Origin: Octopus vulgaris | Taxonomy: Eukaryota | Assembly: GCA_951406725.2 (NCBI GenBank) | Contig: OX597838.1 | Location: 43,214,001-43,278,000, forward strand | Reading direction: 5' to 3' | DNA length: 64,000 nucleotides | Shown: piece after piece, positions 36,191 to 39,000 of the stretch | How positions within the stretch are numbered: position 1 is the stretch's first letter | Layout of the letters: every line of letters starts with the position of its first letter | Translations under genes and position numbers: made by a program | The notes under the pieces: model-generated | Seen by the model: the letters and a program-made list of their open reading frames with translations, nothing else | Database searches by the model: none | Told to the model about the DNA's origin: nothing

Positions 36191-36276
36191 GTAGGTCCCG
36201 GGTTGATTCGGGGTTAACCACAGTAAGTAAGGTACTCAATACATAGCAGAGTAAAATTAATTTATTATATAGAAGG

Positions 36277-36327
36277 AGCTTCTACAGGACTCGTACTGTT
36301 TCATTCAAGAGAAATCTTCAGGAAGCT
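36277..36327 (-). ncRNA. Type I hammerhead-like motif (left arm)
   Basis: AGCUUC CUGAAGA u UUC-ucuu-GAA u GAA ACAG-uacgaguc-CUGU A GAAGCU. Confidence 0.68.
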
Positions 36328-38932
36328 ATTTAACAAGAATTGTATTAGCATTTATACATTTAGGCAGGTTTAAAGGAGTGGTGGTGGGGGACTTTTTGGG
36401 GTAGGCATAGCGCAAAATATCATACTTGGGGGAGTGGTCAAGGAGTCAGTGGTAAGTTAGATGAAAGAATAGATAAATAAAAAAAATAAAAAAATAAAAA
36501 AATAAAAAATATATAAAAAATAAAAAATATATATAAAAATATATATATATAAAAATATATATATAAAATAGGGGGGATAGAGTTATAGGTAAATAAGGAG
36601 ATTCTCACTTATACCTATACACACATGTATACGTATCTACACACACACATATACACACATATATACATATATATATATATATATATACATATACATATAC
36701 ATATATACACACATACATACATATCTACATACACACATACATACACCCGCCCACATATACAAATTTATACACATGCACATGCCTATACCTGTCTACACAT
36801 ACACACACGTATATATGCATACACTCACTCCCATGCATGCACGCATACACACATGTATATATATATATATATACCCACGACCACACATACATATATACAC
36901 AGAAAAATATATATTCATACGCACATACACTCATGCACACACAACACACCTAGTTCCCTATATACACATATTTACACCTATATATACATACACCCACATA
37001 CACATATGTACATATATATATATATATATATATACATATACACGCATACATATATATACATGTGTGCACATACATACACATACACACATACATACACATA
37101 CACATACACATGTGTACCTATACATACCTACACACACACACATACATACATACATATATATATATATATATATATATATATATATATATATATATACAAT
37201 CCAATACAGGCCCATTCCCTAATTTTAATTTTATTATCTTCATTTATTACTTTTGTTATCTTTGATCGCTAGAGCTAAGGATCCTGGCTATGGCAGTATG
37301 TCCATTTGTCTGTCTACTAGAAGGCAAGTACTCATTCCCGCACGCACACTCATTAGCACGTACATTCACCCATTCGTACACTCATACACATACACGTACG
37401 CACGCGTTATATTCATACATACAAACATCTACATACGTTCACGTATATACACATACGTACTCGTACCTACAGATTCGTGTCTACACTTTAGGAGGCTAGT
37501 CTATACATATACACCAATAAATATACATATATATATATATATATATACACACATATACATACACACACACACACTATATACTCCTACATACAGATACATA
37601 CCTATATATATATATATACATATATACACATACATATATATATATATATATATATATACATACATATATATACATACATACACATACACACACACACATA
37701 CACACACATACATACACATATATATATATATATACATACACAAACATATATACACACATATATATACATACACACATCCACACATACATACGTATACATA
37801 CATACATACATCCATACATCCATACTTACATGCATTTATACGCATACATTCATGTATGTAGATGTTTGTATGTATGAATATAACGCGTGCGTACGTGTAT
37901 GTGTATGAGTGTACGAATGGGTGAATGTACGTGCTAATGAGTGTGCGTGCGGGAATGAGTACTTGCCTTCTAGTAGACAGACAAATGGACATGCTGCCAT
38001 AGCCAGGATCCTTAGCTCTAGCGATCAAAGATAACAAAAGTAATAAATGAAGATAATAAAATTAAAATTAGGGAATGGGCCTGTATTGGATTGTATATAT
38101 ATATATATATATATATATATATATGTATGTATGTATGTGTGTGTGTGTGTAGGTATGTATAGGTACACATGTGTATGTGTATGTGTATGTATATGTGTAT
38201 GTGTATGTATGTGCACACATGTATATATATGTATGCGTGTATATGTATATATATATATATATGTACATATGTGTATGTGGGTGTATGTATATATAGGTGT
38301 AAATATGTGTATATAGGGAACTAGTGTGTGTTGTGTGTGCATGAGTGTATGTGCGTATGAATATATATTTTTCTGTGTATATATGTATGTGTGGTCGTGG
38401 GTATATATATATATATATATACATGTGTGTATGCGTGCATGCATGGGAGTGAGTGTATGCATATATACGTGTGTGTATGTGTAGACAGGTATAGGCATGT
38501 GCATGTGTATAAATTTGTATATGTGGGCGGGTGTATGTATGTGTGTATGTAGATATGTATGTATGTGTGTATATATGTATATGTATATATATATATATAT
38601 ATATATATGTGTATATGTGTGTGTGTAGATACGTATACATGTGTGTATAGGTATAAGTGAGAATCTCCTTATTTACCTATAACTCTATCCCCCCTTTTTT
38701 TATATATATATTTTTATATATATATATTTTTATATATATTTTTTATTTTTTTATTTTTTTATTTTATTTTTTTATTTTTTTATTTATCTATTCTTTCATC
38801 TAACTTACCACTGACTCCTTGACCACTCCCCAAGTATGATATTTTGCACTATGCCTACCCCCAAAAAGTCCCCCACCACCACTCCTTTAAACCTGCCTAA
38901 ATGTATAAATGCTAATACAATTCTTGTTAAAT

Positions 38933-38983
38933 AGCTTCCTGAAGATTTCTCTTGAATGAAACAGTACTAGTCCTGTAGAAGCT
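38933..38983 (+). ncRNA. Type I hammerhead-like motif (right arm)
   Basis: AGCUUC CUGAAGA u UUC-ucuu-GAA u GAA ACAG-uacuaguc-CUGU A GAAGCU. Intact core, GUA triplet, weak stem II. Confidence 0.7.
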
Positions 38984-39000
38984 CCTTCTATATAATAAAT

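Follow-up and report, generated by a model that had tools for sequence, protein, structure and literature searches.

Penelope-like element (PLE) insertions have been described as 5'-truncated; a second truncated copy often adjoins their 5' end in inverted orientation, and one end carries a tail of 30-40 bp (Craig et al. 2021, PMC8557442), and a curation guide repeats this description (PMC8969392). The Hydra clade, which includes a family from Octopus bimaculoides, inserts into (TA)n and carries canonical hammerheads; (TA)n targeting is also common to Naiad and Neptune and is not Hydra-specific (PMC8557442). Penelope-13_HM, a member of the Hydra clade, is 3045 bp long and prefers (TA)n; its nt 1-966 are an inverted copy, and each of its strands has hammerheads (PMC8557442). 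Pairs of hammerheads on opposite strands have also been noted in Schistosoma (PMC4209133). It has been reported that the protein of an anole PLE nicks both target strands at AT-rich sites and extends them (Frangieh et al. 2024, PMC11167929). The tail was bounded by two sites on the RNA at which synthesis started, insertion also took place with ribozyme mutants, and a dimer was predicted (PMC11167929).

In this study, we analysed an element at 36191-39000 of a 64-kb stretch of Octopus vulgaris DNA (the whole stretch is called the window). When the element was compared with the window using blastn, one arm pair was found, 36260-37436 versus 39000-37854, with 95.9% identity over 1182 columns. Global alignment of the arms (1177 nt on the left and 1147 nt on the right) gave 1134 matches. 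The differences comprise 8 substitutions (0.70%) and 12 indels, and every indel lies within a homopolymer or dinucleotide run; three of the eight substitutions are outside low-complexity sequence, over 573 nt. The original prediction of inverted arms of about 1.15 kb that differ mainly in microsatellite length and by a few substitutions was thus borne out, as were the spacer of about 417 bp and the extra stretch of about 70 bp at the left end, which measures 69 nt and occurs on that side alone. The features are listed in Table 1.

Table 1. Features of the element and of its flanking arrays (positions in the window).
Feature	Position	Strand	Description
Left target array, (TA)n with C interruptions	35204..36190		987 bp; TRF; 29 C versus 1 G on the plus strand
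One-sided 3' tail	36191..36259	-	69 nt; distal end of the long copy; stops 92 nt past the predicted cleavage site
RCTC...GAGYAC tail motif	36232..36252	-	Shared with Hydra-2_Amil and Hydra-2_Ajap (long 3' ends) and, as a variant, with Hydra-1_Crog; compared by eye
Left arm	36260..37436	-	3' part of the long, 5'-truncated sense copy; runs right to left
Type I hammerhead, left copy	36277..36327	-	Descriptor match; predicted cleavage after GUA, between 36283 and 36282
Spacer	37437..37853	-	417 nt, single-copy; extra 5' part of the long copy; mostly CA/TA microsatellite
KCRHE in sense frame, like Hydra ORF ends	37474..37488	-	Possible tiny ORF remnant or chance; spotted post hoc
Right arm	37854..39000	+	Inverted, more truncated second copy without tail; stops 23 nt past the predicted cleavage site
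T-rich tract (74% T), 3'-UTR-like, upstream of ribozyme	38695..38800	+	Mirror at about 36460-36570
Type I hammerhead, right copy	38933..38983	+	Descriptor match; predicted cleavage after 38977; self-complementary loop III
AT-rich patch, proximal 3' end, merging into (TA)n target	38989..39000	+	Mirror 36260-36271
Right target array, (TA)n with C/G interruptions	39001..42119		About 3.1 kb; TRF; not a mirror image of the left array

The spacer has a strand skew of -0.71, of the same sign as that of the left arm (-0.59), which indicates that it is part of a minus-strand sense copy of 1663 nt running from 37853 to 36191. The second copy, of 1147 nt, is attached in inverted orientation at 37853/37854. 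Since both ribozymes point outward, the 3' ends of the two copies would face the flanks and their truncated 5' ends would meet internally. Read in the sense direction, each copy consists of a microsatellite-rich body, the T-rich tract, the ribozyme and the AT-rich patch, and the tail follows on the left only. Both ends of the element adjoin (TA)n arrays. The layout is that of PLEs: a 5'-truncated copy is joined at its 5' end to an inverted one, also 5'-truncated, a tail occurs on one side, and a type I hammerhead lies in sense orientation near the 3' end. A near-palindrome with a hammerhead at each end is the insertion structure already published as typical of PLEs, and a PLE origin of this insertion is well supported. 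A direct-repeat pLTR or partial tandem was not seen: the unique 3' blocks have no directly repeated copy in the window, and no further copy of the element was found within the 64 kb. Family status is accordingly judged from a single locus.

The hammerheads were searched for with a type I descriptor (stem I of at least 5 bp, YUGANGA, stem II of at least 3 bp, GAAA, stem III of at least 2 bp, NUH). Over both strands of the 64 kb, it matched at exactly two sites, one per element end, and gave 0 matches in each of 40 block-wise dinucleotide shuffles. The two matches are on opposite strands and point outward, in agreement with the proposal of a hammerhead at each outer end and one sense ribozyme per strand. 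Each has a stem I of 6 bp, a stem III of 4 bp with an 8-nt loop, and a stem II of 3 bp on a U.U base. Both predicted loop variants, uacgaguc and uacuaguc (the latter with the palindrome ACUAGU), are present as described and differ by the substitution at 36292/38968. The variants dimerise in silico (-15.2 and -10.4 kcal/mol), yet there is one sense ribozyme per strand.

The catalytic cores had been called intact. This holds for the single-stranded core bases, which equal the consensus in both copies, with some qualifications for the motif as a whole: position 10.1/11.1 is U.U and not G-C, stem II has three pairs, and Rfam does not recognise it. Rfam gave no hammerhead in the window at the gathering threshold and none on 38890-39000 at E<=10. 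For 34900-39100, no hammerhead was among the 150 of 168 matches listed. The matches given by the E-value scans were to miRNAs only, microsatellite-driven and below the gathering score. In the predicted ensemble, the pairing probability of stem II was 0.06-0.11. The predicted minimum-energy fold pairs core bases, at -9.0 kcal/mol versus -7.8 kcal/mol for the active fold, and shuffles of the 57-71-nt hammerhead stretch are predicted to fold as well as the stretch itself (z about -0.1). Metazoan PLE hammerheads were previously reported to have a conserved G10.1-C11.1 pair and low activity in vitro (Cervera and De la Pena 2014, PMC4209133). As a monomer, the axolotl retrozyme HHR_Amex2, which has U.U at stem II, reached 22% self-cleavage within 1 h, and cleavage of the dimer was better (PMC7229834). 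On the predicted folds, the ribozyme at this locus would be expected to self-cleave weakly or not at all. The hammerhead was probably inherited from the 3' end of the parent element, and it is probably weak alone and dispensable for insertion.

We compared the 3' ends with those of the Hydra clade. Penelope-13_HM is a direct precedent: it is of similar length (about 3 kb), its inverted copy spans about 1 kb, and hammerheads occur on each of its strands. The Hydra hammerheads are likewise canonical and type I, near the 3' end, and often have a U.U stem II base and a 4-bp stem III; by our count in File S2 of PMC8557442, 14 of 25 families have the U.U base and 4 of 25 have ACAG/CUGU as stem III. 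In contrast, loop III of the element is 8 nt long and those in the Hydra table are 1-3 nt. U.U at stem II is not exclusive to Hydra, as it also occurs in the axolotl retrozyme (PMC7229834). Six new Hydra consensus sequences fall, by eye, into three that end 36-47 nt and three that end 88-116 nt after the cleavage site (PMC8557442). The ends of the element lie 23 and 92 nt after predicted cleavage; the short end is thus below the Hydra range of 36-47 nt. In the Hydra long 3' ends, an AT-rich patch is followed by RCTC...GAGYAC, exactly in two of three and as a variant in the third, and the tail of the element carries this motif as well. The motif has a single match in the window and arose in 27 of 20000 shuffles; its definition was post hoc. 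Hydra-1_Crog has, by eye, a comparable T-rich tract before its hammerhead, and the 3' end of Hydra-1_Obim showed by eye no sequence match to the element. These comparisons, made by eye with Hydra elements alone, suggest that the 3' end is Hydra-like, which is likely but not proven; its features may also occur in Neptune, Nematis or Poseidon elements.

The element was also compared with other known systems. It shares 5' truncation, an inverted copy and an AT-rich target with PLEs generally (Penelope/Poseidon, Neptune, Nematis; anole PAc, PMC11167929), as well as a one-sided tail that would be bounded by two reverse-transcription start sites. It differs from them in that its tail is 69 nt long instead of 30-40, that stem III is present, so that the hammerhead is not minimal, and that there is no direct-repeat pLTR at the locus, a feature that varies among PLE copies (PMC8557442). 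The Naiad clade lacks a canonical hammerhead, and the element has the canonical three-stem motif. The Chlamys non-autonomous elements (MRC1, PMC8557442) are similarly non-coding and share only the 3' end with autonomous PLEs; unlike the element, they belong to a green-algal clade, are mostly without hammerheads and form head-to-tail tandems instead of an inverted pair. Metazoan non-LTR retrozymes (PMC7229834; bioRxiv 10.64898/2026.07.22.740005) are also non-coding, carry a type I hammerhead and are thought to be PLE-mobilised. However, their repeats are arranged head to tail, measure 150-450 bp (up to 972 bp for a consensus) and yield circular RNA between two same-strand ribozymes. We rejected an identity with retrozymes, as the unit of the element is at least 1.66 kb, with one ribozyme per strand and no head-to-tail tandem units.

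A near-palindromic non-coding outline like that of the element is found in MITEs and foldback DNA transposons; the element differs in being bounded by two retroelement 3' ends, one longer than the other. In L1 twin priming, both target strands are likewise used, but a non-overlapping 5' segment is inverted, whereas the element carries the same 1.15 kb twice.

The element had been described as non-coding. None of its 40 frames of at least 20 aa had a Pfam match above cut-off, in a search run with no positive control for PLE endonuclease ends, and no ORF was seen by translation, which agrees with that description. In particular, an RT or GIY-YIG endonuclease ORF is absent by translation and Pfam, while Hydra-clade PLEs carry an RT-GIY-YIG ORF. 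The marks of the Hydra clade at the protein level are the RT motifs RWK and DKT, a CxCX5C linker, the lack of CCHH and the place in the RT tree, and the element has no coding sequence in which to look for them. In the six Hydra consensus sequences, the ORF ends, by eye, roughly 10-180 nt before the ribozyme; the element has 1.5 kb of non-coding sequence upstream of it. About 1.5 kb of microsatellite-rich non-coding sequence at the position of the Hydra ORF end points to a probably non-autonomous family. A protein search with a frame of the element arm gave no match, and SINE-like and LINE-like frames were also blank. These blanks are uninformative, since even an abundant SINE-like repeat was unmatched and the database seemingly lacks the repeats of this genome. 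A search of prokaryotic genome contigs gave 0 matches to the element, which is likewise uninformative for a collection without eukaryotes.

The one peptide that resembles Hydra ORF ends is KCRHE. It was the sole such match across the six frames of the window; among 3000 shuffles, the exact peptide occurred in 0, [KT]CRH in 15 and a relaxed motif in 146. Approximately 350 nt upstream of KCRHE are microsatellite, and a stop lies four codons before the peptide, so that it is at most a remnant. This bears on the alternative that an autonomous PLE, with a 3' UTR swollen by microsatellite expansion, gave rise to both copies as truncated pieces of that UTR, in which case the family would not be non-autonomous. 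PLE copies are mostly 5'-truncated (PMC8557442, PMC8969392), which fits such an origin, as does the likeness of KCRHE to Hydra ORF ends. However, the microsatellite and the stop before the peptide do not make an ORF, the known Hydra UTRs are by eye about 180 nt or less, and the likeness amounts to five residues noticed post hoc. We regard this explanation as distinctly improbable.

Taken together, we consider it probable that the locus is a retrotransposed insertion of a non-coding and probably non-autonomous PLE with a Hydra-like 3' end, in which two 5'-truncated copies (1663 and 1147 nt) were joined at their 5' ends within (TA)n via priming from both nicks. The DNA itself shows the layout, with its putative hammerheads and a tail on one side, as well as the target and the absence of any recognisable ORF. 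The steps of insertion would be as follows. A PLE protein acting in trans would nick both strands of a (TA)n array. One nick would prime reverse transcription at the distal start site, that is, the tail end at 36191. The other would prime at a proximal AU-rich site 69 nt upstream, now at 39000, probably on a second RNA molecule. The two cDNAs would then grow towards each other, halt early in microsatellite and be joined at 37853/37854.

Alternatively, the inverted arm may have come from a single cDNA, by fold-back or a template switch near 37853, after which the cDNA would have been copied back in the direction of the left end and annealed via the AT-rich patch to the opposite target end, or from a later inverted duplication at the DNA level. 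One template would account for the near-identical arms, and the AT-rich patch is able to pair with (TA)n. A 7-bp hairpin also spans the junction. Hairpins of this kind were matched at 73 of 383 spacer positions and at 152 of 1212 positions in the inner arm plus spacer; the hairpin is not significant, and we rejected it as evidence of fold-back. The central junction has no left-side microhomology. The right arm crosses six longer perfect AT tracts of 11-31 nt before it halts, at the patch that follows the ribozyme, and a set start site is thereby favoured over chance annealing. The halt also falls in the position class of the Hydra short ends. Fold-back is a real possibility on these grounds, but an unlikely one, and priming from both nicks is preferred.

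The flanking arrays, of 987 and about 3130 bp, are the two longest TA arrays of the window; the next is 586 bp (TRF). In its first kb, the right array has 113 C versus 3 G on the plus strand, and thus has the same polarity as the left array. The right array (38989-42119) changes at about 40050, from C-only interruptions to a regular mixed C/G higher-order pattern. No mirrored or duplicated flanks were seen, and a target-site duplication would be unreadable within (TA)n.

These observations also bear on whether the inversion is an artefact of assembly or of a folded-back read. Long (TA)n flanks and the inverted structures of PLEs are known to trouble assemblies (PMC8557442), and indels confined to simple runs, as all 12 are here, are expected from sequencing error. 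However, the mirror ends where the element itself ends and does not include the tail. The two flanking arrays share C polarity instead of being mirrored, and the sequence beyond them differs. In addition, three substitutions are in unique sequence, the 417-nt spacer is single-copy and the window contains no N. An artefact is hardly probable at all.

The insertion had been called a recent, microsatellite-laden PLE derivative. Its PLE layout, a long copy that is 56% low-complexity and arms 0.7% apart support this. A divergence of 0.7%, or 0.5% in unique sequence, corresponds to about 0.7-1 Myr at the octopus rate of PMC13282606, presuming that the arms were identical at the start; the insertion would be younger if two templates served. 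In O. vulgaris, 336 recently active Penelope-like insertions were counted (PMC13282606).

Simple and dispersed repeats make up about 47% of the window, as judged by masking, and further repeats were found. A miniature two-headed palindrome of another family lies at 34968-35203 (236 bp; 77-bp arms with one mismatch), between TA tracts in the same TA array and 1 kb away. Between its arms it holds a minimal hammerhead-like motif that has one mismatch in the core (minus strand, 35070-35098), and single copies related to it are at about 17257-17375, 49125-49190 and 49911-50031. The miniature palindrome, with further hammerhead-like remnants in the window, suggests that palindromic PLE-type insertions are ordinary in this genome. 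Another family of PLE-type ends, the third, is a two-copy repeat at 26029-26129 and 52482-52583, whose plus strand bears a minimal-hammerhead-like motif with its core at 26068 and 52522. At 43439-43470 and 43760-43791 is a pair of 32-bp repeats about 290 bp apart, inverted by eye and possibly a MITE. Dozens of SINE-like copies of 150-300 bp are present, which we take to resemble octopus SINEs. The stretches 43780-44460 and 31900-32200 are presumably broken LINE-like coding debris and 12980-13350 is presumably mariner-like, as judged by motifs; this debris had no Pfam or database match.

It had also been suggested that the element, if transcribed within an intron, would form more than 1 kb of dsRNA and be a substrate for ADAR or siRNA production. 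The predicted fold of a read-through RNA pairs 1135 of 1177 left-arm nt in a duplex of about 1.1 kb, which agrees in silico with the dsRNA part of the claim. For the host gene, we scanned 150 ORFs, the least repetitive of 219 passing the filter from 774 stop-free frames of at least 40 aa. None of the 150 reached the Pfam cut-off, a scan in which short exons could be missed. Of the 32 rows of candidate exons from a splice-signal scan, none could be recognised by eye, and no tRNA genes were found in the window. As no host gene was found, the idea of an intronic ADAR or siRNA substrate is without support here. In the predicted read-through RNA, the sense ribozyme pairs with its antisense copy at 51 of 52 nt, and the duplex is at -99 kcal/mol versus -9 kcal/mol for the ribozyme's own fold. 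Since the antisense copy would be transcribed first on either strand, the ribozyme should be switched off in a read-through transcript.

The arms differ by transitions at 36411, 36688, 37087, 37165 and 37297 (and their mirrors), all of which are A/G on the sense strand, the direction expected from editing of the template RNA. They were not counted as significant, because that strand is G-rich and three of the five sites are in microsatellite. An element lying in a transcribed intron, acting as a dsRNA source for editing or siRNA and bearing an active ribozyme, could draw on the long predicted duplex and on these transitions. Against it, no gene was found, the element is young with no sign of selection, and the ribozyme would pair with its antisense copy. 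We find such a function highly doubtful; the element at this locus is most likely inert.

We found no description of this element's family, or of non-autonomous Hydra elements, in the open literature; Repbase, other TE libraries and supplements could contain one. An extended proposal, speculative and rather unlikely, is that the element represents an undescribed Hydra-dependent non-autonomous family that normally yields a two-headed palindrome. A dimeric PLE particle would carry two RNAs and prime both target strands at two fixed start sites, so that insertions record second-strand priming, and the flanking arrays would be lengthened with the insertion by reiterative synthesis of a telomerase-like RT.

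The locus itself matters little, being one more PLE insertion. However, with both 3' ends of one family preserved together in it, the insertion is well suited to testing the two-start-site model (PMC11167929). The comparison suggests a conserved tail motif in Hydra-like elements, of which we noticed no description in the accessible part of PMC8557442, and non-autonomous families of the Hydra type are hinted at. Such palindromes, if common in the coleoid cephalopod host, would add to its potential dsRNA pool. Growth of the arrays by the PLE RT, if true, would connect PLEs with the high microsatellite content of genomes of this kind.
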